Positions 17,090 through 39,272 of a stretch of 46,458 nt of DNA are shown here, piece after piece. The position numbers were made by a program, and so were the translations under genes. Below the pieces are notes generated by a model, which was not told where the DNA came from, searched no databases, and saw only the letters and a program-made list of their open reading frames with translations. This DNA comes from Escherichia phage Phagiculus, in the sequence record OR896821.1; one strand, given 5' to 3'. Each line of letters begins with the position of its first letter. The first letter of the stretch is position 1.

Positions 17090-17132
17090 ATAGTACCGCA
17101 TCCTTGCGATTGATGTTTAGCAATTCGTGCTA
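17090..17132 (-). promoter_or_regulatory. conserved promoter module (IR TAGCAC-N3-TTGCTA plus -10-like)
   Basis: plus-strand tagcaattcgtgcta at 17118..17132; minus-strand TACTAT 22 nt downstream; leader ATTGAAACGA. Confidence 0.55.
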
Positions 17133-17450
17133 TTTGCTCCAGTTATCCAGGTAATAACTATTGCTTACTACATGCTGAATCTTAGAGTAATCTCGATACT
17201 TATCAATAATCTCCTGAACGTGAGCGCCTCGCTGCTCATGGAACTCTACAGCCTTCTGAAGCGATACAATGGCCTCATTAATGTCAGTAGTATAATCCTT
17301 GTGTCGAGTGCGAATGCCGCTGCACAGAACCTTCTTTATGGCGTGCTGCAGTGCCGGGTCTGTTACTCCAAATGCTGCGATTACTCGATATACATCCACG
17401 GTAGTCTTGGTGCCATCAAGACCAATAATTTCTTTGTTGTACTTACTCAT
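17130..17450 (-). CDS. hypothetical protein (106 aa)
   Basis: ORF in early block. Confidence 0.55.
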   Translation of the reverse strand: MSKYNKEIIGLDGTKTTVDVYRVIAAFGVTDPALQHAIKKVLCSGIRTRHKDYTTDINEAIVSLQKAVEFHEQRGAHVQEIIDKYRDYSKIQHVVSNSYYLDNWSK

Positions 17451-17568
17451 ATCTCAATCCTCGTTATTGTGCCGCCATGCGTCTTCTGCATCAAAATGGC
17501 GTACTGCTCGCTTACATAGTGCAGCAACATTGGTATGCCGCTGCTGCTGAATGAGTGCTCATAGATTT

Positions 17569-17748
17569 TCACTTTAGAAGTGCTCTCTTCACTATCATAT
17601 AATCAAGCGTCGGGCCAATATCATCTTTCATTTGCCTTACAAACTCATTGGCTGACTTCTCATTGTCAAAGCATGAGCTAACGCCAGCAATCAAGCCATT
17701 ATTGTATAAGCAAACCAGGTAAATCCAGCTTTTGTAACCGTTAATCAT
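17569..17748 (-). CDS. hypothetical protein (59 aa)
   Basis: internal ATG at 17748 chosen to avoid 100-nt overlap with upstream gene. Confidence 0.4.
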   Translation of the reverse strand: MINGYKSWIYLVCLYNNGLIAGVSSCFDNEKSANEFVRQMKDDIGPTLDYMIVKRALLK

Positions 17749-17758
17749 TTTACATTCC

Positions 17759-17992
17759 TCACTTGTATTGACTAGCCAGCTGGCAACCTGATAGTGCCGT
17801 GCAAATCTTCTCGTACTCAAGCCAAGCCAAATCTTCCTCACACGATAGAACATCTTCAAACTCTTGATTGCAAATCTGCTCTACGACCTCTGTAAGCGAT
17901 TCTGACGCGGTAAACAACTTACGGTTGAGGCAATGCATTAGTACGGTTTTAATCTCGCTAGCTTGCTCTTCTGACAGGTTAATGGTAATCAT
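17759..17992 (-). CDS. hypothetical protein (77 aa)
   Basis: downstream of conserved promoter module. Confidence 0.5.
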   Translation of the reverse strand: MITINLSEEQASEIKTVLMHCLNRKLFTASESLTEVVEQICNQEFEDVLSCEEDLAWLEYEKICTALSGCQLASQYK

Positions 17993-18021
17993 CTTTACTT
18001 CCTCTCGTTTGGTATGTGCTT

Positions 18022-18064
18022 ATTATATGTAATGCCATCCGTGGCGTCTTAGCAATTCGTGCTA
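18022..18064 (-). promoter_or_regulatory. conserved promoter module
   Basis: tagcaattcgtgcta at 18050..18064; minus-strand TATAAT at 18027..18022. Confidence 0.55.
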
Positions 18065-18078
18065 TTTCCCAATCAGGA

Positions 18079-18576
18079 TTAATTCATCTCCTTAATCATA
18101 TCCTGGTACATCCGGATAGCTTTGATAGCGCCAGATAACTCATCACCTTCCATATCAACGATATTAGGGCTTAACTTCAGGATTCGCTCCTTAAAACTCT
18201 CAATTGCCTTTATCTCAATGTGCTCGTTAGTCTTGTTACGAACCCCTTCTTTAATTGCTCCTTTAATGAGGGTGATCTTCGCACAGTACTCAACCTCATC
18301 TTTGAACTCCATGTCACCAAAAGAAAGTCTAGCTCTGTAATCGGCGTCCTTCATTGACTCCATTCTGCTGGCAGTGTTTGCAACATAGGATGCTTTTAGC
18401 TTGGTAATCTCATAACGACCGCCTCGCTTGAAGTCAACATCAGAAGAGTCGAAGTCAACCTCTCCACCAAGCAGCTGATAAATCTTCTTGACCGGTACAT
18501 GGAACTCTTTGGCCTCAGACTTGAGTGCCTCATCAACCATACCTCGCACTACATCACCCAAAGTTGTATTGCTCAT
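18079..18576 (-). CDS. hypothetical protein (165 aa)
   Basis: first gene of the early minus-strand block. Confidence 0.55.
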   Translation of the reverse strand: MSNTTLGDVVRGMVDEALKSEAKEFHVPVKKIYQLLGGEVDFDSSDVDFKRGGRYEITKLKASYVANTASRMESMKDADYRARLSFGDMEFKDEVEYCAKITLIKGAIKEGVRNKTNEHIEIKAIESFKERILKLSPNIVDMEGDELSGAIKAIRMYQDMIKEMN

Positions 18577-19014
18577 GTCTTTCCCCTCTCGTTAAGTTAC
18601 ATCCATAATATAGCGGACTTATATACGTGTCAATAGCTGTGAAAAAAAATAGACATTGCATGTTTTTACGCTTTAGCCCATGAGAGCCCCGCCACTGCTG
18701 ACTGTGAATCGCTGTGCACAATGTAGATAGAATCCCGCCGGACCCCCTATATATATCTATATCCTTTCGGAGATATGAATATACATCATTGAGAGGAAAC
18801 ATATGGGTATCACCATTATGGCTATCTACACTATTTACATAACAATATTATAATAATAATAATAACTCTAAGTTGTTTATATATATAGATATTTTATTGT
18901 AACTAGCTGTAAATTTACGCGGATTGCGTAGATAAATTCCCGCGCGCGCATTTTTGTCTATAGCTTTAACTTCGTTTACGCGTATCGCATATAGATGAAG
19001 AAATTTAGCCGCAA

Positions 19015-19170
19015 ATGTGAGATGTGCAATCACCATCATCATTTCATTCAATCAATCCATCAATCATTGCAGAAATGGCAACAATCAACAAACCTGTTGC
19101 AATCGATGAAATATTGCTGTATTTGCAATAGTTATGTGAATCATTGCAATTACTGCAACAATCCATAAAT
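19015..19170. repeat. cluster of about 7 palindromic TTGCAA(T) sites (iteron-like)
   Basis: gtgcaatc, cattgcag, gttgcaatcg, tttgcaatag, cattgcaatt, ctgcaacaatc within about 150 bp. Confidence 0.5.
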
Positions 19171-19178
19171 CTAACGAA

Positions 19179-19222
19179 TAGCACTTTTTGCTAAAGACGA
19201 AACCACCATGATTGGGTATAGT
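19179..19222 (+). promoter_or_regulatory. conserved promoter module
   Basis: tagcactttttgcta then aagacg then TATAGT at 19217..19222; leader CCATCGAAACGAA. Confidence 0.6.
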
Positions 19223-19260
19223 TACTCCATCGAAACGAACCAAACACAGGAATCTGAATC

Positions 19261-19443
19261 ATGGCTAAGAAAATCAATAAAAACTCACCAGTAACTAAAG
19301 AAAACATGGTTGCTCTTCTGGTCCAGGAAGGCTACAACCTGGCCAATACTGAAGTCCTGGTAGATACATGGTTTAAAAAGATGGTTAGCGCGCACCCTGA
19401 AGACAACATTAAAGAACTGGCTTACTACTTTAAACACCTGTAA
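19261..19443 (+). CDS. hypothetical protein (60 aa)
   Basis: first gene after promoter module. Confidence 0.55.
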   Translation: MAKKINKNSPVTKENMVALLVQEGYNLANTEVLVDTWFKKMVSAHPEDNIKELAYYFKHL

Positions 19444-19456
19444 CAAATTGGGGCTT

Positions 19457-19675
19457 ATGTCCATTAAATTAACGATAGATGAGACTAAAATGAAAACATT
19501 ATTTAAGAATAAAGATGAAATTGTTGTAGGTGACACGATTATCATGAATGGGGAAATGCATACTATGGGAAAAGAGAGTTTCGGCAGAGATGAGTTTCTT
19601 GGTCGTACGATTCGCGGTGATAGCTTTGCGCTTGGTTATCGCATGGTTGAGGTGGTGGTTGATGTTAAGTTCTAA
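19457..19675 (+). CDS. hypothetical protein (73 aa)
   Basis: ATG at 19457; ORF-track start at 19448 is TTG. Confidence 0.45.
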   Translation: MSIKLTIDETKMKTLFKNKDEIVVGDTIIMNGEMHTMGKESFGRDEFLGRTIRGDSFALGYRMVEVVVDVKF

Positions 19676-19676
19676 A

Positions 19677-19719
19677 TAGCACTTTTTGTTAAAACAGGCA
19701 TTAAGAAAACGAGTATAGT
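19677..19719 (+). promoter_or_regulatory. conserved promoter module
   Basis: tagcactttttgtta, aaacag, TATAGT at 19714..19719. Confidence 0.55.
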
Positions 19720-19747
19720 TATCACATCAACAACGAGGAGATAGAAA

Positions 19748-19981
19748 ATGAAAGCAATAATTATCAACAACGAAATTAAGTTTGACGAAGATGCACTAAG
19801 CCTGGCTGATATGGGTTATGAGATTGGTGAAGAGGTTGAGGTTGCACATTGCAATTGTGATTGCGATTGTGGTTATTATTTCATATATGCAAAGCAAGAC
19901 GTCATTATCGATGGGATTGTCGCTGTAATTAAAGGTGAAGAAGTTCAGGTTAACTCAGAAGAAATTGAGGTGATTGCATGA
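19748..19981 (+). CDS. small Cys-rich protein (HCNCDCDCGYYF)
   Basis: GAGGAG RBS; ORF. Confidence 0.5.
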   Translation: MKAIIINNEIKFDEDALSLADMGYEIGEEVEVAHCNCDCDCGYYFIYAKQDVIIDGIVAVIKGEEVQVNSEEIEVIA

Positions 19982-20184: not shown

Positions 20185-20188
20185 AAAC

Positions 20189-20542: not shown

Positions 20543-20766
20543 TTCATGAACTAAAGATATTACCAGTACATTTTGATCCGGTAGATACTGGCCTTAAGCT
20601 GGCAGAGCTAAGAAAAAATGACAGAAATTTTTCTGTTGGTGATAAGTTGATACTCAAAGAGTTCCACGATGGTGCTTATACCGGAAGGATTACAATAAAA
20701 GAGGTATTACATATAGCTGATGTTTCCGAATATCTTCCAGGGTATGTTTTACTCTCAATGTATTAA
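20539..20766 (+). CDS. ASCH/DUF3850-like small protein
   Basis: MIHELKILPVHFDPV...LRKNDRNFSVGD pattern typical of the DUF3850 family. Confidence 0.45.
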   Translation: MIHELKILPVHFDPVDTGLKLAELRKNDRNFSVGDKLILKEFHDGAYTGRITIKEVLHIADVSEYLPGYVLLSMY

Positions 20767-20810
20767 TAGCACTTTTTGCTAATGACATTACCCGCCTCGG
20801 CGGGTATATT
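20767..20810 (+). promoter_or_regulatory. conserved promoter module
   Basis: tagcactttttgcta, -35-like ATGACA, TATATT; hairpin CCGCCTCGGCGG in spacer. Confidence 0.55.
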
Positions 20811-20842: not shown

Positions 20843-22426
20843 ATGTTTGATTTTAACGATGACAAATTGACTGTTGAGCAAGTAATGGCTGTTGCCGCTC
20901 AGGATGGATTGCCTCCCTTACGCGTTGCTATTAATGCTAATGGATATCGCCAGTCTCAATCATTCTGGAAATCACCTGTAGAGATTGACTCTGCAAATGA
21001 TAAGTACCCTACCATCTCTCTTGGTAACGATTTTGATGTGGTTGGTAAGTTAGCTAATAACATTGCTCGCTCTGTTCAGTTCCCCGAGGCTTCAGCTTAC
21101 ATGCACTTCCTGGGTTGCATCTCTGCGGCAATGCTAGGCCGCTTTACGGTTGAGTATCATGGAACTCAGCAACCTACGGCTTTGTACGTGGTAACTAGCC
21201 AGCCCCCATCCACTGGTAAGTCAGCAATCAACTCATTAGCGATTGCGCCAATGGTTGCAGAGGTTGAGCGAATCAACGACCAACGTAAACGTGAACGCAA
21301 GAAGATTATGGCTAAGCTGTCTGCGTTGGCTAAAGAGATGAAACAGGAGAAGTCACCATCTGAAATGGCATCTCTCTTTGAAGAGAAAGAAGACCTGGAG
21401 GAGAAGCTTGAGAAGATGTGCGATGTTGTATTCCCTGTTTCCGACACAACACCCGAAGGTCTTGCTCGCATCAACAATCGCCAGGGTAACTTTGCGGTAA
21501 TCTCGGATGAGGCGACATCAGTAAACTCATTGCTTGGCATGACTTATGGCGATAGTAGCAAGAAGACAAACAGCGAACTAGTTCTTAAGGCGTGGGACTC
21601 TGGTAACGTATCAATCGCTCGTGCCAACGCAGAAAACAATATGAGTTTTGTTGCTTTAGGTTGCATCTCTGTAATCGCGCAGGATGAGACAATTAACGCA
21701 ATAATGGATGCTGGTGCTCGTGGTATCGGTGTATCAGAGCGTTTCTTATTAGTTCGTGAAAAATCATTCCTGGGCGAACGTGTATTTGTTAACGATAACG
21801 GTGAATCAACTTACGAGCCCATCGATAATGGACTGAAAGCTGATTACTTCCGCCTGGTTCATGAAATTATGTCAGAGGTTGATGTTAAGCTGACAATCAG
21901 TAACGGTGCAGCGCTTTACCTTAACCGCGCTCGTCAGGAAATGGAACCTCACCTCGGTGATGGAGGCAAATACTCTCACTCCATGCTACGTGGCGCTCTG
22001 GGCAAGTTTGATAAGCAGGTAATTCGTATTGCGGCAGTTCTTCATACAATTCGCAATTGGGTTAATCTTAATGGTGGTAGTCCGCAGAAAGAAAGAACAA
22101 TTGACCTTGATACTATGCAGGAAGCCATTGCGATTTTCCATGAACTTAGTAAGACTTATCTTTCATCTGCAAATGCGGCTGGTCATGCTGGTGATAATGC
22201 CGAGATGAATAAGCTGATTGATATTTTGATTAAGCAAGGCAAGGCATCCAAAGGAGTGGTGGGCATTCGTGCGCTTTACGAAGCTGCTCGCAAGGTAAAA
22301 CCATTTAACTCCCAGAATGGTACCATGTTAAAGATTAAAGAACACTTAATGCCAATGCTTGATGAAAAAAACTACACTTGCACAATAGGAGAGAAAATTT
22401 ATGTCAACCCTCGCTTGCTTAGCTGA
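20843..22426 (+). CDS. P-loop NTPase, DUF3987-like replication-associated protein
   Basis: Walker A-like QPPSTGKS and Walker B-like VISDEA. Confidence 0.55.
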   Translation: MFDFNDDKLTVEQVMAVAAQDGLPPLRVAINANGYRQSQSFWKSPVEIDSANDKYPTISLGNDFDVVGKLANNIARSVQFPEASAYMHFLGCISAAMLGRFTVEYHGTQQPTALYVVTSQPPSTGKSAINSLAIAPMVAEVERINDQRKRERKKIMAKLSALAKEMKQEKSPSEMASLFEEKEDLEEKLEKMCDVVFPVSDTTPEGLARINNRQGNFAVISDEATSVNSLLGMTYGDSSKKTNSELVLKAWDSGNVSIARANAENNMSFVALGCISVIAQDETINAIMDAGARGIGVSERFLLVREKSFLGERVFVNDNGESTYEPIDNGLKADYFRLVHEIMSEVDVKLTISNGAALYLNRARQEMEPHLGDGGKYSHSMLRGALGKFDKQVIRIAAVLHTIRNWVNLNGGSPQKERTIDLDTMQEAIAIFHELSKTYLSSANAAGHAGDNAEMNKLIDILIKQGKASKGVVGIRALYEAARKVKPFNSQNGTMLKIKEHLMPMLDEKNYTCTIGEKIYVNPRLLS

Positions 22427-23222: not shown

Positions 23223-23247
23223 TAAAGGGGCTTACGCCCCTTTTTTA
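23223..23247. terminator. bidirectional terminator between convergent genes
   Basis: AGGGGC-TTAC-GCCCCT flanked by A-run and T-run. Confidence 0.55.
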
Positions 23248-24315: not shown

Positions 24316-24377
24316 CTTGCGGCCTCCATTAGTTTATTTGAACAAATTTTACCAGACAATCCATCAAAACATGAACG

Positions 24378-24404
24378 AAAAAAGGGAGCCGATTAAGGCT
24401 CCCC
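24378..24404 (-). terminator. intrinsic terminator upstream of lysis cassette
   Basis: minus strand GGGAGCC-TTAATC-GGCTCCC followed by TTTTTT. Confidence 0.5.
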
Positions 24405-24429
24405 ATAGGTAAGTTTGTGAATTTATTTG

Positions 24430-24603
24430 TTAATCTGCAACAACAAAAGTCAGATAGTGCCCTTCAAGTGGTGAGTAAATCCATCTACCATCCTCACCAA
24501 GAATCTTGTACATATCACCATCTAAATGCTCAGCATTGTAAGGAGTGTCAATTTCAAATTGCATTGTTTTGGAATCGTTACGTACGCAGAATAATTTAGT
24601 CAT
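24430..24603 (-). CDS. hypothetical small protein (57 aa), not in ORF track
   Basis: GAGAG-type leader as in neighbours; plus-strand ORF 24417..24599 is its shadow. Confidence 0.35.
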   Translation of the reverse strand: MTKLFCVRNDSKTMQFEIDTPYNAEHLDGDMYKILGEDGRWIYSPLEGHYLTFVVAD

Positions 24604-24617: not shown

Positions 24618-24806
24618 TTAACGGTTAATGCAAACAAGTGTTTCGGATTTAATTGGGAAGCTATTACCACCCTGCGTTTTAATCATTACGAATGTAACTG
24701 TTGGGTAGTGATTTAATTCTATGCTTTTGACTTTCTGTGGCGGGCAGTTAGTGAAAATAACCTCATCACCCACCTTAACATTATCAACTCTAATTGTCTG
24801 AATCAT
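24618..24806 (-). CDS. hypothetical protein (62 aa)
   Basis: ATGA overlap with upstream gene. Confidence 0.45.
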   Translation of the reverse strand: MIQTIRVDNVKVGDEVIFTNCPPQKVKSIELNHYPTVTFVMIKTQGGNSFPIKSETLVCINR

Positions 24807-24988
24807 TTCTCACCTAATGCAGTCAGGATTGCGTAAGCGATTTCACGCGCATTCTTTCCGGTAAGGTTAATAACGTCAACCTTAATATCTTCTTCGCTTG
24901 ATCCGTATGCCTGAGCAATTTTGAAAGTTTTACCAAAACCAACTTCTTTAACTTCGATCTGCGCATCTGATTGGGTGAACTTAGCCAT
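24803..24988 (-). CDS. hypothetical protein (61 aa)
   Basis: downstream of conserved promoter module. Confidence 0.5.
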   Translation of the reverse strand: MAKFTQSDAQIEVKEVGFGKTFKIAQAYGSSEEDIKVDVINLTGKNAREIAYAILTALGEK

Positions 24989-25020: not shown

Positions 25021-25063
25021 ATAATATCAGGTTTTTACTTTGTGTCTTTAGCAATTCGTGCTT
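25021..25063 (-). promoter_or_regulatory. conserved promoter module
   Basis: tagcaattcgtgctt (one mismatch); minus-strand TATTAT at 25026..25021; leader ATCGAAAACGAGAGAGG. Confidence 0.5.
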
Positions 25064-25205
25064 TTTCTAATGCTTCTTGAACTTCTTCAAAACTAGCAAT
25101 CAGCAAGCAAGCCATTACATTCTCATCAAATACTCGCCAACCTTTCCCGCTATATGCCGCTATGGTGTCGTGGTCGAAATAATTAATCTCGCTAGGTTTT
25201 AACAT
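25035..25205 (-). CDS. hypothetical protein (56 aa)
   Basis: internal ATG at 25205 adjacent to upstream stop. Confidence 0.4.
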   Translation of the reverse strand: MLKPSEINYFDHDTIAAYSGKGWRVFDENVMACLLIASFEEVQEALEKARIAKDTK

Positions 25206-25206: not shown

Positions 25207-25431
25207 TCACACCTTCTTGGATTCGTTAGTGTAGCATTCAAGAATGATTTTCTTATCTTCAATTGAAAGTGATGAGTGATTTAACCAATCAACAATCGTA
25301 TTCACATCAAATCCTTCCAGGTAGATTGATTTACCTTGTTCACACAAATCAACTGAATTTGGTTTATCTGCTGCATCTGCGTTAACACTCGCCGCTGCCA
25401 TGAGGATTGTTGCAATAATCAGCTTCTTCAT
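25207..25431 (-). CDS. small secreted/periplasmic protein (signal peptide MKKLIIATILMAAASVNA)
   Basis: N-terminal signal peptide pattern; downstream of promoter module. Confidence 0.5.
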   Translation of the reverse strand: MKKLIIATILMAAASVNADAADKPNSVDLCEQGKSIYLEGFDVNTIVDWLNHSSLSIEDKKIILECYTNESKKV

Positions 25432-25463: not shown

Positions 25464-25507
25464 AATATAGCGCCTTTCGGCGCTATAGTCTTTAGCAAAA
25501 AGTGCTA
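25464..25507 (-). promoter_or_regulatory. conserved promoter module with hairpin in spacer
   Basis: tagcaaaaagtgcta at 25493..25507; ATAGCGCC-TTTC-GGCGCTAT hairpin; TATATT. Confidence 0.5.
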
Positions 25508-26644
25508 CTTAGTGAACATTTTAGGACGGCAGATGAATCGACCAACCTCGCCAAACTCTTTATGATAAATAATTACCGCAGCCTGACGCTGTGAACGCCA
25601 GCCTCCATTTGCACTGTATGCGTCAGGAGAGCCAAGCTGACCGTGAACCTCGTCAATACCCAAGTTAGTCTCTGTAATCTTCTGTGAGTGCCAGTGCCCT
25701 GAGTGGGTGTAAACATAATCACTAACACCAAAATCACGTCGCCAATCAGTAGCCATAACAGTCAATCGCGTTTCGGCTTTCCGCATCTGGTGGCCGTGAG
25801 TGTATCCAATCAAAGTAGAGCCAAACTTAGTAACCATCATAGCCGCGGGGCTTACGTCAACCGTGACTCGAGGCTCATCCTCATAGAATGCAGCAAGAGC
25901 GGCGCGAAGCCAAACCATACCAGATTCGTCGTGGTTGCCAGAAATTGTTTTAATATCAATAGTTTGGTGCTTCTCAAGCATCTTACGAATAGCTCGACGA
26001 ACAGACCTAATACAAACATAAACAATCTTAGCATAACGGCTGTCGCTGTCTAAAATATGACCGCTTGCAGGTGTCTTAGCCTCAAGTGAATCATAGTGAA
26101 TCAAGTCACCACCAAGTACAAGTACGGCATTCTTTGAGTTCGGCGCTTCATTTACAGCATAATCAAAGAAGTCATTCATTACCTTTTCTGCGGTTGCCGT
26201 GTCGTAGTTTTCACCACACTCATGCTTGTGAGCCATAGCGCCAATATGAAGGTCAAATACAGGGTACATAGCCAAAGTGTTTTCATCAAAAACTTTACCC
26301 TTAACTTCAACTGGTTCTTCTTTAGGTAACTCGGAGCAGAAAGCCTCTCGAGCTTGCTCCATCAACTGCTCAAGTCGCTCATTGTCAACGCTAGTCTTGA
26401 CCCACCGAATCTTCTCATTTCCTTCTGCGTCAATCATGGTTGATGTTCCCTTCACCATGTAACCATCTGGAACAAGCTTCTTAATGCCAGGATTTCCATG
26501 CAACTCACCAGCCTTAGCCAGCTTACTACGACGCAATTCAACATTGCGAATATTCATACCGTACTTCTCTGCGATTGCCTTGTTAGTCATTCCGTTCGCC
26601 AGTTCTTCACGAAGCTGTTCGTTGCTGATTTTTGCAGTTGCCAT
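25505..26644 (-). CDS. metallophosphoesterase (Mre11/SbcD-like) with N-terminal HTH
   Basis: FDLHIG, GGDLIH, GNHDE, GHWH motifs; N-terminal GMTNKAIAEKYGMNIRNVELRRSKL. Confidence 0.7.
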   Translation of the reverse strand: MATAKISNEQLREELANGMTNKAIAEKYGMNIRNVELRRSKLAKAGELHGNPGIKKLVPDGYMVKGTSTMIDAEGNEKIRWVKTSVDNERLEQLMEQAREAFCSELPKEEPVEVKGKVFDENTLAMYPVFDLHIGAMAHKHECGENYDTATAEKVMNDFFDYAVNEAPNSKNAVLVLGGDLIHYDSLEAKTPASGHILDSDSRYAKIVYVCIRSVRRAIRKMLEKHQTIDIKTISGNHDESGMVWLRAALAAFYEDEPRVTVDVSPAAMMVTKFGSTLIGYTHGHQMRKAETRLTVMATDWRRDFGVSDYVYTHSGHWHSQKITETNLGIDEVHGQLGSPDAYSANGGWRSQRQAAVIIYHKEFGEVGRFICRPKMFTK

Positions 26645-27584: not shown

Positions 27585-27802
27585 TTAAAATCCTCTGGGC
27601 AATCTTTTTTCATTTCTTCGATGTCTGCAACCATACGTTCACGCCATGTTTCGATATCTGTATTTAGATAATCTTCTTCAAAGCTCATGTCAATACAAAG
27701 TGATAAGTCCCATGGGTTTTTGTTATAACCAGATTTCTTTAGCTCCTCAACTGCCATTAACTTAAATACTTCCCATTGATTTTCAAAAGTAAAAATAGCC
27801 AT
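27581..27802 (-). CDS. hypothetical protein (73 aa)
   Basis: ORF. Confidence 0.45.
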   Translation of the reverse strand: MAIFTFENQWEVFKLMAVEELKKSGYNKNPWDLSLCIDMSFEEDYLNTDIETWRERMVADIEEMKKDCPEDFK

Positions 27803-27996
27803 TATTCTGATACCTCATCAAATTTTTCGCCGAATACGTTTTTAACAGTTTCTAAATCATCTTTGTAGGTTGGGCTAACTTCGAATGCGTAACCATCACC
27901 ATCATCAAGGACATAACCTTCTTCATTGATTACTAATTCATATTCGTAACCAGTCTTGCGTGATTCGTAGATTTTGCCAGTGTATATAGTAGTCAT
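27802..27996 (-). CDS. hypothetical protein (64 aa)
   Basis: ATG at 27996 after GAGAGAG leader; ORF-track start at 28044 overlaps the -10 element. Confidence 0.45.
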   Translation of the reverse strand: MTTIYTGKIYESRKTGYEYELVINEEGYVLDDGDGYAFEVSPTYKDDLETVKNVFGEKFDEVSE

Positions 27997-28032
27997 TTTG
28001 TTTCTCTCTCTGCGTTTCGTTTCGATGAAGTG

Positions 28033-28075
28033 ATAATACATCACTTCTCCGATTCGTCTTTAGCAATTAGTGCTA
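28033..28075 (-). promoter_or_regulatory. conserved promoter module
   Basis: tagcaattagtgcta at 28061..28075; aagacg; minus-strand TATTAT at 28038..28033; leader CATCGAAACGAAACG. Confidence 0.6.
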
Positions 28076-28450
28076 TTTTGATAAGTAATCCTCAATCGCC
28101 AGCTTAAACATTTCAAAACCGTAACAGATAGCTGCGTAACCTCCTGTTTCTGATACCTTTTCTAGGAAATCCTTTTGCTCCTTTGAAACCTTGCTATCTG
28201 ATTTTATTGCGCGCTTAAGTTCGATTGCCGCGAATCCATTTGGTCCAATCAGCAAGATATCTGAAACTCCCTTGATTACACCTTCCTGCTTATCCTTGAC
28301 GGCAGTTCCAATTGACTTCAGGCCTTCATTCTTGACGTGAAAGGCAAATATCTCAGGGTGGTTATGACGCACCCAAGCAATCGAATTAACCTGGTGAACA
28401 ACCTCTTTAGCTTTATCCGTGCTTGTCTTGTCGTGAAATACTTTAATCAT
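28073..28450 (-). CDS. VRR-NUC domain nuclease
   Basis: GVSDILLIGPNGFAAIELK D...E.K pattern; AAGGAG RBS before ATG at 28450. Confidence 0.5.
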   Translation of the reverse strand: MIKVFHDKTSTDKAKEVVHQVNSIAWVRHNHPEIFAFHVKNEGLKSIGTAVKDKQEGVIKGVSDILLIGPNGFAAIELKRAIKSDSKVSKEQKDFLEKVSETGGYAAICYGFEMFKLAIEDYLSK

Positions 28451-28451: not shown

Positions 28452-30382
28452 TTAGAACTCCTTATTTGCCATGTTATCGCCACCTTTGGCGGTCTTACGG
28501 TGAGTTACTCGCTTTGGAGCCTGAATGTATTGTGCGAACTCCATAATCTTACGAGCATTGCGATATGCAGCCATGTATCTTTTAGCATTCATATCTACTA
28601 CATGCCCCTTAATTCCATTATTCAACCATAAAGTCTTGCATACTCGATGGTCCGACTCTACAAAGAAAACCTCCTGAGCCTTAAATGTCCCACCCATGCC
28701 GTCATCAAGGACGTAGTTGTAGATGATTCCTGATTGGTTCTTGGTGAGGCCAACTTTGAAATCAACAACATCAAACCAGTCATTTTTTCTATAATGTTTA
28801 CCGCTTAACTTCAGATTTGGGTCAAGCAAAGTGCAATCACAACCCCTGCAAATCTTGGCAGCTACGTCATTCTGAACTCCACAACCTTTAACGGTAATCT
28901 TTCCTGTGCGTGGGTCCTTCTGGTCTTCACAGGTGCGACTAACCCAGAAATATTCACAGCGATTGTTATTCTCATCAACATGCATACAGCGACGAGCATA
29001 AAAGCTATTCTCAGTTCCGCAAACTGGGCACTGCTTGGTTTCCTTGCCATTACTCTTGCGTAGCTGATATTGGGCCTGTTCAAGTATTGGGTTGAAGTAA
29101 AGCGCAGCCATTGAATCCATAGTTCCAGCGAAATCCAAAACAAGGTGGTCATTCTTGACCATTCCTTTATCTTCATGAAACTTTTTGAGTTTACGCATCC
29201 CTCGACCAAGAAGCTGAACAAGAAGTGTAAGGCTACCAATCTTGCGAAGAATAACGCTTGTATCCCATGTTGGTACGTTAACCCCAGTAGTCAGAGCCTG
29301 AACCTGGAAGCAGTATTTTATCTCTCCATTAAAGCACTTATCTAATAACTCTTTACGCTGCTTTTCACCAGTCTTGCCAGTAATAACGCAGAAAGTTTCC
29401 CCTTCTGGCAAGTAGCTAGCCGCTTCATGGCAATGTCTTTCACCAGCACAAGTAACCAGAACTCCGTTACGGTCTTTAGCAGCGAGCCAGACCTTCTTCA
29501 TTATCTCAGCTGTCATTGTTCCGGACTGCTGAATCTTCTTCTCCATTGCCTCAAGCTGAGCCTTTGTATAGTCCTGCACTCCATCATCTGCGGAAGTGTC
29601 GAACTCTGACAGGTCATAACCCATACCATCAGTGGCGCCAAAGTTTGTCGGTACTACGGAGCCGAACTCAACAAGATAATCTGTATCTATATTTGTAACA
29701 GTCTCGCGCCAGAACCCCATCTCCTTTTTGTTCTCAACGACAATTGGAGTGGTTCCACGGAAAGGTGAGCCAGTCAGGCCAAAGATACGCAGGTTCTTGC
29801 CATACTTGGCTCGGCAGCGTTCCATTAAAGTCAGGATGATAACTGTGTACTGGCTGCGACCTTTATCTGATGCCTGTTGCGCAGTTTCGTTGTTATCAAT
29901 TGCCTCTGCGATATCCTGGTCATCAACCATGTGACACTCATCAATAGCAACTACCGCAGGGCAAAAATCACCAAGTGACTTCTCAAGACCTCCAACTACC
30001 GTGCCCTCGGAGCCAACTACAATTGGGAAATAAGAAGACTTAATGCCAAGTCCTGAGCAATAGATAGAGTTAGGTACACCATAGTCAGAAATCTCAGAAG
30101 CATTCTGGCTAACTAACTCAGCCTGACGCGCGAGAACAAGCATTGGCAAGCCAAGTTCGGAGCAGCGCTTAGCGACCATGCCAAAAACAAGCGTCTTACC
30201 TGCGGAAACCGAAGCCATTGCGATGAATGGGTGCTCATAACGACCAATACGTTTTGCAATCTCATTGTACATTACACACTGATAGCTATAAGGAACCATG
30301 CCGTTTGATGAAGTGAATTTAGTTTGAATCTCTTTGATTTTATCTTCGCCAAGTTCTGCAATCTGTTTCTTAATATTAATCA
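28452..30382 (-). CDS. SF2 DEAD/DEAH-type helicase with C-terminal Cys-rich zinc-ribbon region
   Basis: Walker A SVSAGKTLV, Walker B AIDECHMV; CPVCG...C...C cluster; ORF-track start at 30431 is TTG and overlaps the promoter. Confidence 0.8.
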
Positions 30383-30394
30383 TGACCTTGCCAT

Positions 30395-30422
30395 TTGTTT
30401 CGTTTATGTATGGTGCTATAAT
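30395..30422 (+). promoter_or_regulatory. sigma70-like extended -10 promoter for HTH gene
   Basis: TTGTTT - 16 nt - TGcTATAAT on plus strand. Confidence 0.4.
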
Positions 30423-30459
30423 ACACGACAAGCGAAAACACTTTTAGCAAAAAATGCTA
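30418..30459 (-). promoter_or_regulatory. conserved promoter module (divergent with 30395..30422)
   Basis: tagcaaaaaatgcta at 30445..30459; minus-strand TATTAT at 30423..30418. Confidence 0.5.
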
Positions 30460-30469
30460 TCGAGGTTAA

Positions 30470-31016
30470 TATGTCAGAAAAAATTGCATTATCTACTGGT
30501 GAGATTGATAAGAGAACCACCAACGGAAACAACGGAATCTCTCGCAGTGAAGACAAGAAGCCACGCAAGCGCCCCAGTGGTTACTACGTATTAAAGGATG
30601 AGGTTAAGGCTGGTCTTAAGGCTAGGCTTGAGATTATCTTAGGATGCTTTGAATCAAAGGCAGATATGGCCAGGAAGTTGAAAGTGAGCCCTCAAGTGGT
30701 CGATCAGTGGTTTAAGCGTGGTTTTATATCAGTTGATGGCGCTTATAAAATGCATAAGTACATGAAGCGAACAGGGTTGGGTTATCGCGCCTCTTTTTGC
30801 AGACCAGACATCAAGTTCGATTCCAACGGCAAGCCACTACATAAGCGATGCCAGGACCGTAGAATGATGCGGGTAGTTACCGATAAAGAGTTGAAGATGA
30901 AGCCAATGGAAAAGAACTGGCGACAAAAGAAGAAGGAGAAAGCACTGAAGAAAATTCAGGAGAAGGAAGCTAGAGAGCATTGGATAAACGCCTTTTCAGA
31001 TATTGAGCACGAATAG
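30470..31016 (+). CDS. Cro/YdaS-like HTH DNA-binding protein with basic N-terminus and K/E-rich C-terminus
   Basis: KADMARKLKVSPQVVDQWFKRGFIS ... CRPDIKF pattern typical of the YdaS/Cro family. Confidence 0.5.
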
Positions 31017-31076
31017 TCAAAAAATACCACCTAAACGGTGGTATTTTTGTATGCAATGTAGATGAGGAGAGTAGAC

Positions 31077-31988
31077 ATGAACTACGATAAGAATGAAGTT
31101 ATTTCCAGAATGAAGGGGCTTTGGCCTGACGCTCTCGTTAAGCTGTGTGGGGTAAATCCAGCGGTATTCAAGAGCAGAAAGCATCAGCCATGCATCTACT
31201 GTGGAGGAACTGACAGGTTTCGATGGACAGACAAGGTTAATGAGCAGGGTGACGGAGGCGCTATCTGCAACCAGTGCGGCGCTGGTGATGGCATTAAGTG
31301 GATTGAGAAGATGAGGGGTGAGTCTTTTAGCGAGGCCGTAAATACTGTTGGTGAGTGGCTGAATCTCGTCCCTGTTGAAGTCGTTAACAAGGCAAACAAA
31401 TCCGCAAGCAGGGTTCAGCGCTATAAGAATGGCGCTCAATCATCTCCAGAATTAATAGAGAAGGTAATGTCTCGCACCAAGTCGGTAGAAATCACACAGC
31501 TAACGAGATATGAAGCCATTATTGCTGAGCGTGAATACAAAATAGGCATCAATGAGTCTGGAGAGGAAATTATAGCCGAGCAATGCTTTATGGTTTACGA
31601 GGATGGATTTGCTGACGAGCCTTGCAACGTAAAATTTATCAATGAAGAAGGTAATGAGTCATACCTTGCAAAAGATTATACACGCGGTTCGATAGTTCCG
31701 GTCAGTGAATGTAATGAAGGCTCTATCTATCTAACAGTTGGCTGGGTTAATGCAATGCATGTCGCGGAATGTACAGGAAGGACGACATATGACTGCCTAA
31801 CGCATTACAACCTAGAGATGGTTGCGTACGAACTCAGGAATAAAGACTGCCGCATAGCCTGCCTCAGAGATGATAAGGAGTCGCTTTATGTTGCTGACGA
31901 CAGGTGCATTAAAGTTGTTGTTCCAAATGGAAACTCATTCAAGAATGGATTGGAGAGAAAACTATATTCACCACAAGATTTAATCTAA
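31077..31988 (+). CDS. DNA primase (zinc-ribbon N-terminus)
   Basis: CIYCGGTDRFRWTD...CNQCGAGDG zinc-binding motif typical of phage primases. Confidence 0.6.
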   Translation: MNYDKNEVISRMKGLWPDALVKLCGVNPAVFKSRKHQPCIYCGGTDRFRWTDKVNEQGDGGAICNQCGAGDGIKWIEKMRGESFSEAVNTVGEWLNLVPVEVVNKANKSASRVQRYKNGAQSSPELIEKVMSRTKSVEITQLTRYEAIIAEREYKIGINESGEEIIAEQCFMVYEDGFADEPCNVKFINEEGNESYLAKDYTRGSIVPVSECNEGSIYLTVGWVNAMHVAECTGRTTYDCLTHYNLEMVAYELRNKDCRIACLRDDKESLYVADDRCIKVVVPNGNSFKNGLERKLYSPQDLI

Positions 31989-32010
31989 CCCTCTTCGGAG
32001 GGTTTTTTAT
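31986..32010 (+). terminator. intrinsic terminator after primase
   Basis: AACCCTC-TTCG-GAGGGTT followed by TTTTTT. Confidence 0.65.
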
Positions 32011-32060
32011 TGCAACCAATCTGATACAATAGGTTTTATCTATCAAAAAGGAGAAATAAC

Positions 32061-34745: not shown

Positions 34746-34775
34746 AAAAAGCCCCTTAAGGGGCTTTATCTTTTA
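34744..34775. terminator. bidirectional terminator between tail fibre and SSB genes
   Basis: AAGCCCC-TTAA-GGGGCTT flanked by A-run and T-run. Confidence 0.65.
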
Positions 34776-35241: not shown

Positions 35242-35892
35242 TTAGAACTGCTCGATTGATTGTGATTCTACCGCTTCACTCGTTGCGTTTGCAACCTTTT
35301 TAGCGACTTCCTTTGGTTTCGATGGGTTGAATCCGCTTGCGGATGCCATTTTAATCTCAGCTTGCTTATCAATAATCGCCTTCTCTACGATACCCCACGT
35401 TGCCGCGTCAGCTTGTGACTTACATGATTTGTAGATTTCAATTAGCTCTTCTCGTGTCTCGGCCTTCTCAACTTCTCGCTTCCAGTCTTTTACGCTCTTA
35501 ACTGCCAGGTTGCCGTCATCATCAGCTTGACTTAAACCAAGCGCCGCCGTGATCGCATATCTCCGAGCATAAGTTAATGAAGAACCCGTACCTTGACAAT
35601 CATTCTTGGCTAACGGAACAATAGTTAAGAAAGCCACCCACTCCGCAGTCTCTGCATGATAAATTTTAGTCTCAACCTTTATTTGATTTGTTGCTTCGGT
35701 TTCCAACATGCTCTGGAACATCACCAGTCCACTATCCTCAAGACCTGGCTCTACAGCCGCCAAAACGTCATCCAGAGTTGCGTATTTGTTCTTAAGGTGT
35801 GAGTTTTGCTTTGACTTTTCAGCCTTTGCAAACTTGCTTTTAGCTTCGAATAGTGCCTTTAAAACGTTTGTGTTTTTATCGCTAGTATTCAT
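35242..35892 (-). CDS. Erf-family single-strand annealing protein
   Basis: GSSLTYARRYAITAALGL motif typical of the ERF family. Confidence 0.7.
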   Translation of the reverse strand: MNTSDKNTNVLKALFEAKSKFAKAEKSKQNSHLKNKYATLDDVLAAVEPGLEDSGLVMFQSMLETEATNQIKVETKIYHAETAEWVAFLTIVPLAKNDCQGTGSSLTYARRYAITAALGLSQADDDGNLAVKSVKDWKREVEKAETREELIEIYKSCKSQADAATWGIVEKAIIDKQAEIKMASASGFNPSKPKEVAKKVANATSEAVESQSIEQF

Positions 35893-35921
35893 CTCTGTCT
35901 CTCTTTTTTGTCGATTAGGTA

Positions 35922-35964
35922 ACTATACACCATCGATTTAATCCTGTTTTAGCTATTCGTGCTA
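35922..35964 (-). promoter_or_regulatory. conserved promoter module
   Basis: tagctattcgtgcta (one mismatch); minus-strand TATAGT at 35927..35922; leader CCTAATCGACAAAAAAGAGAGA. Confidence 0.5.
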
Positions 35965-35966
35965 TA

Positions 35967-36440: not shown

Positions 36441-37386
36441 ATTTTTTCATCTCATATTCTGGTATCTGCAAATCCATCTCTGTTTCGCCAAATCCGTAAC
36501 CAGGCCAAATATCAAGTTTCTTGCATTGCTTGTACACAGAAAGCGCGCTCATATACTGCAATCTACCAACCTTTAATTGCTCCTTGGTTATCGTGTAGCA
36601 CATTGGCAAGAAAGGGCTTTTCTTCTCCTGGCAAAGAAGCTGTACAACAACTTTACGTTTTTCACCAAAGGCGCGAACAAACAAATCATGTTGAAGCGAC
36701 ATTTTTAGCAAGTAACCATGCTTGAATGCCAATCTCCCAAATCCAGACGGAGAAGCATCACTAGTCGTCTTGTAATCTCGGATGTAAACAACATCATCAA
36801 CAACATCAACATGGTCCAGTCGAACCTTTACGCCGCACTCGTTAATCTCACCGAAGATTGATAACTCTCTCTGAGCGGTCTTGCTGTTTACTATAGCGTT
36901 GTAAGCCGGAATGCCACATAACACGTCTCGCATCGCCTGTACAGTGTCAAAGTCTTTAGCTGATACAATCTCGCGCCCATTTGCTTTAGCCTCGCTAGAG
37001 CGCTGAATATCCCACCATACGTTAAGTGATTCCCCACTCAGAGCCAACATCTCCATCAACTCCGGGTAATCCTTACCAGATGTCCCAGCAATTCCCATAG
37101 ACTTCAATCGAGTTGCCAATGCTGCCTTGCTGGTAATAAGGTCTTCAAATTCTTCCTGTGATGGTTGGCGATAGTAAGTCGCATCAAATACAGAGTTCTC
37201 AAGAATAACCGTATGGGCTAATGTACCGAACTTTAAAGCCTTACTGCTATCATCATGCTCTGCAAACTTATACGCCGCTGGACAAGTTGAGAATATGTGA
37301 GCCAGGCCAGAGCCTGACACATGGTCAGACTCCTGATGGTAGGCTTCGTTGGTTAACTCATCGTTAGTGTAAACCTTGAAGCTCAT
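36427..37386 (-). CDS. PD-(D/E)XK-type exonuclease (recombination partner of Erf)
   Basis: VRLDHVD...IRDYKT D-(D/E)-x-K pattern; adjacent to erf and ssb. Confidence 0.6.
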   Translation of the reverse strand: MSFKVYTNDELTNEAYHQESDHVSGSGLAHIFSTCPAAYKFAEHDDSSKALKFGTLAHTVILENSVFDATYYRQPSQEEFEDLITSKAALATRLKSMGIAGTSGKDYPELMEMLALSGESLNVWWDIQRSSEAKANGREIVSAKDFDTVQAMRDVLCGIPAYNAIVNSKTAQRELSIFGEINECGVKVRLDHVDVVDDVVYIRDYKTTSDASPSGFGRLAFKHGYLLKMSLQHDLFVRAFGEKRKVVVQLLCQEKKSPFLPMCYTITKEQLKVGRLQYMSALSVYKQCKKLDIWPGYGFGETEMDLQIPEYEMKKYELA

Positions 37387-37390
37387 AATC

Positions 37391-37585
37391 TTATTCCTTA
37401 ACCTTAATAATCTTCATCACAGAACCGAGTTCCTCGTCTGTGACGTGCGCATACTCTATTGCCTCTTGCTTCGTTTCAAATCTTGCAGCTTCTGATTTAT
37501 TACTTGTGTAACCAGAGCCATCTACGCAGTAGTAGCAAGTGCCAAAAATAGGATTGTTTCGCTCTTGAATAATGAAGTATGCCAT
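37391..37585 (-). CDS. hypothetical protein (64 aa)
   Basis: ORF. Confidence 0.45.
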   Translation of the reverse strand: MAYFIIQERNNPIFGTCYYCVDGSGYTSNKSEAARFETKQEAIEYAHVTDEELGSVMKIIKVKE

Positions 37586-37661
37586 CTCTATATCTCTCTC
37601 TGCTTGTGTGAGTTAACTATGCCATCCGTTGCTAACTTTATCCAATCGGTTTTGCCTATTG

Positions 37662-37877
37662 TTAACTAACCTTTGGAGGATTTGGTGCTAGCATGTAATG
37701 AGTCACGTCATCAATCTCTTCACAACCAAGAGTAGTGAAGCACCTGTACTTTTTAAAAGTTTTAGGATCAACTAAGTAATTCCAATAAGCAGGCATCACG
37801 CCATAACTTCTTGAATTAACAATAATAAATACTTGGTCATCACTTGGCTTTTCGTCTTTAACATCAACCCATTTCAT
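37662..37877 (-). CDS. hypothetical protein (71 aa)
   Basis: ORF. Confidence 0.45.
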   Translation of the reverse strand: MKWVDVKDEKPSDDQVFIIVNSRSYGVMPAYWNYLVDPKTFKKYRCFTTLGCEEIDDVTHYMLAPNPPKVS

Positions 37878-37951
37878 AATTAATACCCATATATATTATT
37901 TAAATTAATTATATAATAATTTAATTTTTATTATCCAATCGGTTTTGCCTA

Positions 37952-38602
37952 TTAGTTCAGTTTCAAAATCTCGCTATTTTTATCAACCAGCTTATTAATT
38001 AACTCATCCTTATCAGCCAGCTTATGGCAAAGAGTCTCACACTGAGCCTGATATGAGTAAACCAACTCTTGCGAGTCAAAGTATCTACCTGATTCAAACT
38101 TCAATTCGTACATCTTTTTGTCAACCTCCTCGCCATCTGAAGCCTTGTCGATGTACTTATAGATAATCTTCTCAAGTTTATAAACTTCATCCTCAGCGCG
38201 GTTTCTAGCAGCAATCTCTTTCGTAGTCTGCATCTTCTCCTTTAGAACCAGGTCGTAAGAAACCATCTTAGCTACATGCTCTTTCAGTAACTTGTTTTCC
38301 CGCTCAAGCTGCTTAATCTTTTTAATCATGTTCATTCGCGCTTTCGCGCTGTACTTCGCAACAAGGCATAACGCGTGGTCCTTGTCGAGTAAAGCTACCT
38401 TGTGAGTCTGTCCTTTGTTGTTATATTCACGGTCCCGAAATTCGGGAGCGTGATTCTCTCCATAAAGATCAATGTACATTTCTTTTGCTGCATTAAAGAC
38501 ATGCTCATGCCTTTGACCAACAACTCCAGCAATATCAAAGGTGGTCATTGTAATTTCTTCATCAGTATTCATTAAGTTCATTGTTTGCTCTCTTATTGTC
38601 AC
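37952..38602 (-). CDS. Rha-like phage regulatory protein with coiled-coil C-terminus
   Basis: TTFDIAGVVGQRHEHVF ... KVALLDKDHALCLVAKYSAKAR pattern typical of the Rha family. Confidence 0.45.
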   Translation of the reverse strand: MTIREQTMNLMNTDEEITMTTFDIAGVVGQRHEHVFNAAKEMYIDLYGENHAPEFRDREYNNKGQTHKVALLDKDHALCLVAKYSAKARMNMIKKIKQLERENKLLKEHVAKMVSYDLVLKEKMQTTKEIAARNRAEDEVYKLEKIIYKYIDKASDGEEVDKKMYELKFESGRYFDSQELVYSYQAQCETLCHKLADKDELINKLVDKNSEILKLN

Positions 38603-38651
38603 TGCTCAAATCTGAGCAGACTGGCAAGCACTATTGCCGCCGCTGAGTTAA

Positions 38652-38693
38652 ATATACCCGTTCAGAAGCATCCTGTTTTGACTAATCGTGCTA
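38652..38693 (-). promoter_or_regulatory. degenerate conserved promoter module
   Basis: tgactaatcgtgcta (half-site degenerate); aaacag; GTATAT; leader contains hairpin CTGCTCA-AATC-TGAGCAG. Confidence 0.35.
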
Positions 38694-38869
38694 TTTTGTA
38701 TACCAGCGTAAAACTATCCAATTTACAGATTCCCCCACCTGCAACACCGCCATCACTTGATGTAACCGATGTATATAGAGTAAACAAGAAAAAATCACCC
38801 ACATCTATATCTATAGATAAATGCAGGTATGTATATGCTCGTAAAAATGAAGATTATACGCCCATCGCC

Positions 38870-39272
38870 TCATGAGCCCGCACCAACACTGGATGTAACT
38901 CATGTAAACGCTGTAACAGTAGTTTTTGCGCCCCTATCTATATATCCATATGCATTTGGCAACACCAGAAACAGAACTTAGTCATTTCAAAAAAACATAT
39001 CAACACAACCATAGAAGGTAGTTACACTATATACAAACAAATATAGTAATAATAATAATTACTCTAAACCCTTATTATATAAGGATTCTTTAGTGTAACT
39101 AATGCGTATCTGCGCGTAAAAAGCGTATACAATTTCCCGCGGGTCAGGATTGCATACATCGATTTACATAGGTTACGCGTATATCAAATAGCACGATTTG
39201 CTAAAGACTGACTGAAGCACCTTTGGTATAGTTACTCCATCGAAACGAAAAACACTTAATAAGGATTCAAAA
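38870..39272. repeat. AT-rich control region B, paralogous to 18670..19260
   Basis: same ordered sequence blocks as region A, ending in conserved promoter module. Confidence 0.6.
39189..39232 (+). promoter_or_regulatory. conserved promoter module
   Basis: tagcacgatttgcta, aagact, TATAGT at 39227..39232; leader TACTCCATCGAAACGAA identical to the one at 19222..19250. Confidence 0.6.

Follow-up and report, generated by a model that had tools for sequence, protein, structure and literature searches.

What reads the short repeat that stands ahead of so many genes of the Escherichia phage Phagiculus? The DNA analyzed (sequence record OR896821.1) is that of a T1-like siphovirus of the Rogue1/JK06 type in the Drexlerviridae, and all of its 46,458 nucleotides (nt) are referred to below as the window. 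A preliminary description, made from the letters alone, had noticed 12 promoter-like sites that share an inverted repeat, TAGCAC-N3-TTGCTA, and had suggested a phage-specific regulon under the control of one DNA-binding protein. Here the observation was confirmed, in that the repeat marks 13 to 14 promoters. These repeats are probably class II marbox promoters, with the host proteins MarA, SoxS, and Rob (RamA in Klebsiella and Salmonella) as the activators. The whole analysis was computational. The region from 17 to 39 kb carries the replication, recombination, lysis, and small accessory genes, with the structural genes in the flanks, and the closest relatives share approximately 80 to 83% identity across 45 to 51% of the 17- to 40-kb region. 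Gene names were taken from the annotation of phage AHS24.

All 12 sites were found where they had been placed. Exact matches to TAGCA-N5-TGCTA numbered 8 in the window, compared with 0.06 expected from 100 dinucleotide shuffles, none of which reached 8; sites 19677, 25049, 35950, and 38679 differ from TAGCAC-N3-TTGCTA at one to three bases. A scan with a position weight matrix (PWM) recovered 12/12 of the listed sites and added a full 13th copy at 4549 on the minus strand, in the structural region and beyond the range covered before, as well as a weak, degenerate 14th copy at 31005 on the plus strand, which overlaps the last 12 bases of a gene for a Cro-like regulator. When oriented, the 12 sites share one layout, aaaTAGCAC-N3-TTGCTA-AA(G/A)AC followed by a -10-like hexamer, a ribosome-binding site, and ATG, and every copy is co-oriented with its downstream gene. 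The hexamer is of the TATAGT/TATAAT/TATTAT type, as described, with TATATT and TACTAT as further forms; it lies 21 to 23 nt after the 15-mer rather than 22 to 23 nt. The ATG follows 71 to 84 nt past the start of the 15-mer (112 nt for site 38679), and the -10 lies approximately 30 to 45 nt ahead of it, in agreement with the earlier estimate. Open reading frames (ORFs), in a crude call, covered all but 8% of the window. Seven of the 13 full copies (17118, 18050, 19179, 20767, 30445, 35950, and 4549) lie wholly outside them; three (19677, 25493, and 28061) touch the stop codon of the upstream gene only, and at 25493 it is the TAG of the element that terminates the upstream exonuclease gene; and three (25049, 38679, and 39189) lie within short or doubtful ORFs.

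Only the 5-bp arms of the 15-mer form an inverted repeat; the C at position 6 and the T at position 10 are consistently non-complementary, and the element is thus oriented and asymmetric. Because of this consistent asymmetry, it was compared with the E. coli marbox. The marbox consensus has been given as AYnGCACnnWnnRYYAAAY and called "degenerate and asymmetrical" (PMC3709825), and also as gcannwwntgnnaaa, "not a palindrome," with class II sites in the forward orientation and overlapping the -35 (PMC12052159). MarA, SoxS, Rob, and RamA read the marbox in Enterobacterales, and a screen of E. coli needed two mismatches to recover approximately 70% of the known targets (PMC12052159). Class II sites lie near -41, with no recognizable -35 (mean of 1.9 matches, none above 3) and with a canonical -10 and start (PMC10268841). 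The helices of MarA read CAC(G/T) and AAA, seven bases apart, and micF has CACT-7X-AAA at approximately -41 (PMC8811837).

In a 20-nt frame that runs from the A preceding TAGCAC to 4 nt beyond the 15-mer, the phage element fits all specified marbox positions but the last. What had been taken for a phage-specific palindrome matches, position by position, an asymmetric host site that is bound by monomers, and the AAGACN or AAACAG that had been read as a separate -35-like box belongs to this 20-bp element, of which it forms the 3' end (AAA and a further 2 nt). Eight modules in the window match gcannwwntgnnaaa perfectly, compared with 0.57 in shuffles, and all 14 sites lie within one mismatch of it, each with a -10 at 17 to 19 nt. 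With the 19-mer consensus and at most one mismatch, 7 modules were recovered among 8 window matches in total (1.03 in shuffles). The marbox at 17118 has 0 mismatches to both published forms, and site 38679, degenerate as a palindrome, is yet only 1 mismatch from the marbox consensus.

The comparison was extended to 72 IMG/VR loci fetched around homologs of the Cro-like protein (30471..31016), which yielded 404 modules, approximately 330 of them distinct; these modules were partly chosen with the phage-derived PWM, so that their conservation is inflated. The hosts listed for the family are all Enterobacterales. The family element is A-T-A-GCAC-nnW-TT-G-Y-T-AAA-nn (20 bp), and 255 of 329 distinct modules match gcannwwntgnnaaa perfectly, with 71 more at one mismatch. 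The degenerate positions behave as the marbox consensus permits: Y2 is T (.84) or C (.13), W10 is A (.52) or T (.48), R13 is G (.99), and Y14 is C (.59) or T (.38). When the published consensus alone was used on the 72 loci, 272 distinct perfect matches were found, and 204/272 have a -10-like hexamer exactly 18 nt downstream. The micF promoter of E. coli K-12 is built in the same way, with the marbox ACAGCACTGAATGTCAAAAC, 18 nt, TAGAAT, 7 nt, and the annotated +1; its spacing equals the family mode and its orientation is that of the phage modules. The gap to the -10 is 17 to 19 nt (mode 18), and the element would be centered at approximately -40.5 if transcription starts at a conserved CA. The phage modules thus resemble the class II promoters of MarA, SoxS, and Rob (RamA), such as micF, lpxL P1, and rfaY P1, in the 20-bp asymmetric consensus, the forward orientation, the ordinary -10 without a recognizable -35, and the 18-nt marbox-to--10 distance of micF. 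They differ from chromosomal promoters of this class in that they occur on virulent genomes at 13 to 21 copies per genome, are far nearer to the consensus than most chromosomal marboxes, have nearly invariant positions 3 and 11, and often hold the terminator of the upstream gene in the spacer.

The interpretation as promoter modules in which a weak -35 goes together with the geometry of a class II activator site was supported, the spacing to the -10 being fixed to within 1 nt over approximately 300 distinct copies. Among the family copies the -10 follows the 15-mer by 22 nt in 230, 21 nt in 55, and 23 nt in 18, and 303/329 distinct copies have an A at -11 and a T at -7. At 17-bp spacing, the phage modules agree with TTGACA at a mean of 1.84 positions, leaving no recognizable -35, and an extended -10 is present in 75/307, so that most modules are without one. 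These two features make the modules look activator dependent. A generic sigma-70 scan flagged 2/13 window modules and found no excess of canonical promoters (42 versus 45.8 expected). Two other promoter assignments were rejected. The promoter-proximal TTGCTA was dismissed as a -35, since 22 to 23 nt separate it from the -10 and no conservation is seen 17 nt past it. A sigma-54 promoter (TGGCAC-N5-TTGCW) would have GG and GC doublets 12 bp apart and a start approximately 12 nt after GC; the phage element has AG rather than GG, an AG-to-GC distance of 10 bp, and a conserved -10 and CA 22 to 30 nt further on.

Two further features of the modules became apparent. Hairpins of -4 kcal/mol or stronger occur in 47% of the family spacers, compared with 15% of shuffled spacers, and in 116 of 142 folding spacers the hairpin reaches, with its 3' end, directly to the -10 (hairpins of the window are listed in the table). 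The upstream gene thus often appears to have its terminator built into the promoter spacer, with the -10 serving as the T-rich tail of that terminator. Six nt after the -10, a partly conserved CA(+1)TCGAAACGAAA stretch begins that the preliminary description had missed; the family sequence after the -10 reads tacc.CA-tcgAAAc, and most modules have a leader box, CA-TCGA(A/C)AACGAAA, for example at 19229-19241, 28014-28026, and 39239-39251. This leader box recurs in the phage C130_2 and in contigs of 176 to 178 kb and is absent from the phage IME_EC2 and from E. coli micF. It may provide the context of the start site, an unstructured A-rich leader, or a second binding site.

The repeat itself had already been published for phage TLS. 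The TLS re-annotation (German, Misra, Kropinski et al., 2024, PMC11447400) reported a 21-nt direct repeat, aaATAGCACnnnTTGnTAAAA, in 21 copies, approximately 76 nt before start codons and along the direction of transcription, and noted it also in T1, Rtp, and Rogue1. Its authors recognized only three sigma-70-like promoters and proposed that the repeats are stoperators, enhancer-binding sites, or UP elements (PMC11447400). The TLS repeat is the same element, with the same orientation to genes and distance to the start codon; the difference is that it was not tied there to a fixed -10 or to the marbox (PMC11447400). The identity of the element as a marbox appears to be new: no published link between the marbox and phage promoters was found in a search that lay outside the genome papers of T1 (Virology 2004) and Rtp.

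Two of these proposals were weighed here. In one, an UP element or intrinsically curved DNA would act on the alpha C-terminal domain of the polymerase with no specific transcription factor. UP elements are A/T-rich, lie from -59 to -38, and are read through the minor groove, with no fixed G/C positions required. A/T tracts do flank the phage element and occupy its center with a phasing of approximately 10 bp (AAA, nnW, AAA), and UP-like elements are among the suggestions made for TLS (PMC11447400); however, G4, C5, A6, C7, and G13 of the 20-nt frame have frequencies of 0.91 to 1.00, and this explanation is extremely unlikely. In the other, also raised by the TLS authors (PMC11447400), the repeats would be shut-off operators in the manner of stoperators or of Cro, with modules that fire alone early and a phage protein that later silences them or blocks read-through. 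The sites are intergenic and, like the stoperators of L5-type mycobacteriophages, oriented, and a Cro-like gene is present. The promoters nonetheless look activator dependent, a repressor or roadblock would need no ±1-nt lock to the -10 over approximately 300 promoters, and no phage repressor is common to the phages that carry the element. We therefore regard shut-off operators as very unlikely.

An IMG/VR scan for the exact element found complete modules also in contigs that are not of T1 size, and two unrelated phages among these were analyzed as complete genomes. IME_EC2 (Murrayvirus) has 7 marbox sites, 6 with a -10, here at 18 to 19 nt, and C130_2 (Hungariovirus) has 8, all 8 with a -10 at 17 to 19 nt (shuffles, 0.37 sites and 0.00 with a -10). 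Both are approximately 41.5 kb and carry P22-type tail-needle and DNA-ejection genes. The forward orientation of class II sites holds throughout, as 14/14 window sites and all intergenic sites of IME_EC2 and C130_2 face the downstream gene. The Cro-like regulator was found in neither phage (best E, 0.74 in IME_EC2 and >2 in C130_2), and a MarA-like gene was found neither in these two phages nor, by tblastn, in the window or 193 phage loci (2.37 Mb). A marginal MarA-like match in IME_EC2 (E, 0.001) was discarded, being out of frame with gp22 and without an ORF in that frame. The proteins common to all three phage groups are enzymes only, namely, a methyltransferase, a helicase and its small neighbor, a primase, Erf, and exonuclease VIII. 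With no shared regulator and no MarA-like gene of phage origin, a host reader conserved in Enterobacterales is the most economical explanation, and a host-encoded reader would explain why the motif does not vary among phages that infect Escherichia, Klebsiella, Salmonella, and other genera.

Single complete T1-type modules also lie in contigs L117 (178,768 bp), L127 (176,227 bp), and L092 (61,437 bp). Two of the three have the CATCGAAACGAAAC leader, and in L127 the -10 lies approximately 29 nt from the marbox, not 18. These occurrences suggest that promoter cassettes move between phage families.

The preliminary description had named two helix-turn-helix (HTH) proteins of the phage as candidate readers. 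One, the Rha/Ant-like protein encoded by 37952..38581, was rejected: only 124 phage records, mostly of one subfamily, contain it, compared with a family-wide motif, and this narrow distribution marks it as an accessory gene. The other, the Cro-like protein of 181 amino acids (aa) encoded by 30471..31016 on the plus strand (phrog_2856), is a core Drexlerviridae gene, present in 824 phage records from all T1-like clades. It has a Cro/cI-type HTH core whose homologs bear Pfam P22_Cro/YdaS domains, and a search of PDB profiles gave a match to P22 Cro (E, 0.03). In an AlphaFold model with a predicted local distance difference test score of 85, residues 43 to 101 match Xfaso-1 and N15 Cro with target-normalized template-modeling scores of 0.65 to 0.74; the PDB fold matches all have E >0.03 and are uninformative on the DNA target. 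The model also predicts a long C-terminal helix that could dimerize. Conservation in the protein is highest not in the HTH but in an N-terminal stretch, residues 10 to 50 (window 30471-30620), which reads (E/K)(I/V)DKRTxNGNNGTxRGxDKKPRKRPxGYYVLKDEVKAGL, contains an AT-hook-like PRKRP, and is predicted to be disordered to approximately residue 30.

If the Cro-like protein were the reader, the 15-mer would be the dyad operator of a dimeric phage activator, which would be made early from its own canonical promoter, activate the modules from the class II position, and repress itself. Several observations fit. The arms TAGCA and TGCTA are 10 bp apart, center to center, and A3 and T15 of the 20-nt frame are conserved beyond the marbox requirement. 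In every clade a module lies approximately 40 nt upstream of the Cro-like gene, and the gene has a sigma-70-type canonical promoter: among 48 distinct sequences, TATAAT is present in 39 and the -35 has 3 to 5 of 6 matches, with the family pattern TTGnnn, 16 to 17 nt, TATAAT (TTGTCA-N16-TATAAT in Klebsiella phages). In these 48 sequences the element lies at approximately +16 of the regulator leader, which is an autoregulatory layout; in the window the marbox at 30441-30460 would fall at approximately +16 to +35 of the regulator transcript, in reverse orientation. That copy is already explained, however, as the promoter of the divergent helicase gene, which the module drives in every clade. Its -10 overlaps the regulator-gene -10 on the opposite strand, and these back-to-back promoters should exclude each other. 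A symmetric dimer also leaves unexplained the constant orientation and the fixed, non-complementary C7 and T11. Further, helix 3, the putative recognition helix, varies (QVVDQW, QAVEEW, SLLTIW, ATLYEW, and KTVYGW) while the DNA motif is unchanged, and the covariation of motif and regulator anticipated for relatives was not seen across 19 helix variants. IME_EC2 and C130_2 keep the element and its spacing with no Cro-like protein. An operator for the Cro-like activator is thus unlikely.

Known phage activators provide a useful contrast. Lambda cI at OR2/PRM and Mu Mor at Pm are phage dimers centered near -42 to -43.5, and their sites, like the element described here, overlap or replace a weak -35; as in those systems, a divergent Cro/cI-type HTH gene adjoins one copy in Phagiculus. 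Their sites are symmetric dyads for phage dimers, whereas the Phagiculus element lacks such symmetry, shows no covariation with the HTH, and is present also in phages from which the Cro-like protein is missing. Stoperators of the L5 type are asymmetric repressor sites, likewise oriented with transcription, that are not tied to promoter elements and have a cognate repressor; the Phagiculus element keeps a set distance to the -10 (within 1 nt), and the phages that carry it have no repressor in common. Cassettes of the T4 type, termed promoter-early stem-loops (PeSL), flank small accessory genes. The modules resemble them as a repeated promoter and hairpin between small, variable early genes, with some modules at breaks in homology and complete modules in unrelated phage contigs. 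The promoter type differs, and breakpoint enrichment at the Phagiculus modules is only approximately 2-fold and is confounded with gene boundaries.

Relatives show sharp homology breaks at modules 20767, 25049, and 25493; at 25493, the upstream flank aligns in approximately 53 relatives and the driven gene, 25207..25431, in none. Homology ends fall within module spans in 9.7 to 11.8% of cases, compared with 4.8% by length, and because of the confounding, a role of modules as mosaic junctions is suggestive only.

How, then, would a class II marbox promoter of this phage work? The module would consist of a 20-bp asymmetric, near-consensus marbox for monomeric AraC-family activators of the host; a spacer of 17 to 19 nt of free sequence, which in about half of the copies holds the upstream terminator hairpin; and a good -10, followed 6 nt on by a CA start and an A-rich leader. 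The marbox would occupy the place of the -35 and face the -10, as at micF. The bound host activator would contact sigma-70 region 4 and the alpha C-terminal domain and recruit host RNA polymerase, substituting for the -35 contact. Replication, recombination, methylase, and small accessory genes could in this way be transcribed with no phage protein needed, and to a higher level when MarA, SoxS, Rob, or RamA is active, as with bile salts, salicylate, oxidants, or mar/ram resistance mutations. Binding and activation by these proteins, and the start positions, are what we infer from the DNA.

Several points weigh against the assignment to host activators. Positions 3 (A,.98) and 11 (T,.98) are conserved far beyond what a marbox requires, and position 19 of the family modules is not Y. 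A3 pairs with T15 in the TAGCA/TGCTA pseudo-dyad, so that a second, dimeric reader could be reflected in the sequence. In each of the Drexlerviridae clades sampled, the Cro-like gene, with its strong canonical promoter, sits right beside a copy. Early-region enzymes and a similar context of the -10 and start are found both in the T1-like phages and in IME_EC2 and C130_2; the modules of the latter two may have been acquired by horizontal transfer and spread as cassettes, and a small shared protein below the sensitivity of tblastn is possible in both. T1-like phages grow well in ordinary laboratory culture, with no inducers of mar, sox, or rob, and basal Rob/MarA activity or an activator-independent basal level would thus need to suffice. 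The literature yielded no binding, start-site, or expression data for T1-like phages; a preprint that mentions Drexlerviridae had carried out its RNA sequencing on a T5-like phage.

Some of these points would be met by two readers. The Cro-like protein is a possible second reader or competitor, which activation by the host proteins does not require. In such an arrangement, which we consider doubtful, host MarA/SoxS/Rob would fire the promoters early, and a Cro-like dimer would use the pseudo-dyad (A3 and T15), either competing and so shutting early genes off or sustaining them when the host activators are inactive. The modules and the regulator-gene promoter are listed below.

Table. Predicted promoter modules of the window and the promoter of the Cro-like regulator gene
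Feature	Span	Strand	Marbox match	Spacer	-10	Downstream gene	Remarks
Module 13	4520..4564	-	4545-4564 (ATAGCACTTTTTGCAAAGAC)	19 nt, with terminator hairpin 4526-4547(-)	TATATT 4520-4525, after TGt	DNA methyltransferase gene 3789..4490	
Module 17118	17090..17133	-	17114-17133 (ATAGCACGAATTGCTAAACA)	18 nt, hairpin 17095-17110(-)	TACTAT 17090-17095	59-aa gene 16882..17061	
Module 18050	18022..18065	-	18046-18065	18 nt	TATAAT 18022-18027	77-aa gene 17759..17992 (DUF7180)	
Module 19179	19178..19222	+	19178-19197	19 nt	TATAGT 19217-19222	19261..19443	After -10: TACTCC-A(+1)TCGAAACGAA
Module 19677	19676..19719	+	19676-19695 (TTGTTA variant)	18 nt	TATAGT 19714-19719	19748..19981 and three more small genes	
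Module 20767	20766..20810	+	20766-20785	19 nt, terminator hairpin 20789-20806(+)	TATATT 20805-20810	Helicase gene 20843..22426	
Module 25049	25021..25064	-	25045-25064 (AAAGCAC...)	18 nt	TATTAT 25021-25026	24803..24988	
Module 25493	25464..25508	-	25489-25508	19 nt, terminator hairpin 25466-25487(-)	TATATT 25464-25469	25207..25431	
Module 28061	28033..28076	-	28057-28076	18 nt	TATTAT 28033-28038	27802..27996 and following genes	
Module 30445	30418..30460	-	30441-30460 (GCAT variant)	17 nt	TATTAT 30418-30423	Helicase gene 28452..30383	Back to back with regulator-gene promoter
14th module, degenerate	31004..31047	+	TGAGCACGAATAGTCAAAAA	18 nt, with hairpin	TATTTT	Primase gene 31062..31988	Full module at the equivalent place in relatives
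Module 35950	35922..35965	-	35946-35965	18 nt	TATAGT 35922-35927	Erf-like gene 35242..35892 and SSB gene	
Module 38679	38651..38694	-	38675-38694	18 nt	TATATT 38651-38656	Rha/Ant-like gene 37952..38581	Without leader box
Module 39189	39188..39232	+	39188-39207	19 nt	TATAGT 39227-39232	34-aa membrane peptide gene 39273..39377 and lipoprotein gene 39379..39600	
Regulator-gene promoter	30395..30422	+		16 nt	TG-c-TATAAT (30417-30422)	Cro-like gene 30471..31016	Sigma-70-type, canonical; -35 TTGTTT

Other features of the window were noted alongside the modules. The holin and tail-fiber genes are without a module; each has an apparent extended -10 (TGgTAAAAT within 24316-24430 on the minus strand and TGaTACAAT within 31987-32060 on the plus strand, respectively) just past a terminator hairpin, which suggests a second promoter class for lysis and late genes. 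Bidirectional terminator hairpins lie at 23224-23243 (AAAGGGGC..GCCCCTTT) and 34748-34767 (AAAGCCCC..GGGGCTTT), where opposing gene blocks converge. Beside module 19179, the divergent intergenic region 19095-19165 contains repeated TTGCAAT/ATTGCAA motifs (TTGCAATCG.., TATTTGCAATAG.., and CATTGCAATTACTGCAAC), which may represent a further regulatory site or serve the leftward genes 18079..19051 as their promoter. The small early genes are separated from the terminase region by a tRNA-Arg gene (anticodon CCT) at 15890-15965 on the minus strand, and a tRNA-Arg at such a place has been reported for related Rogunavirus phages.

If the assignment to host activators is right, most early and middle transcription of the Drexlerviridae would be wired to the multidrug-resistance regulators of the host, and the same wiring would be present in at least two unrelated coliphage groups. 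It would also account for a repeat that has been seen in the T1 genome since 2004 and would supply a set of compact, near-consensus promoters dependent on MarA/SoxS/Rob. Early expression, latent period, and burst size would respond to salicylate, bile salts, oxidants, and marR, ramR, or soxR mutations and would be expected to fall in rob marA soxS mutants. Should two readers operate, the 13 to 21 near-consensus marboxes on a replicating genome would titrate MarA/SoxS/Rob, and such titration would, as a side effect, blunt the efflux and stress responses of the host; T1-like phages and Klebsiella phages of the genus Webervirus would in that case grow differently on multidrug-resistant mar/ram mutants. 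The Drexlerviridae are a large family, with 824 records that carry the core regulator, and include Klebsiella phages considered for therapy.

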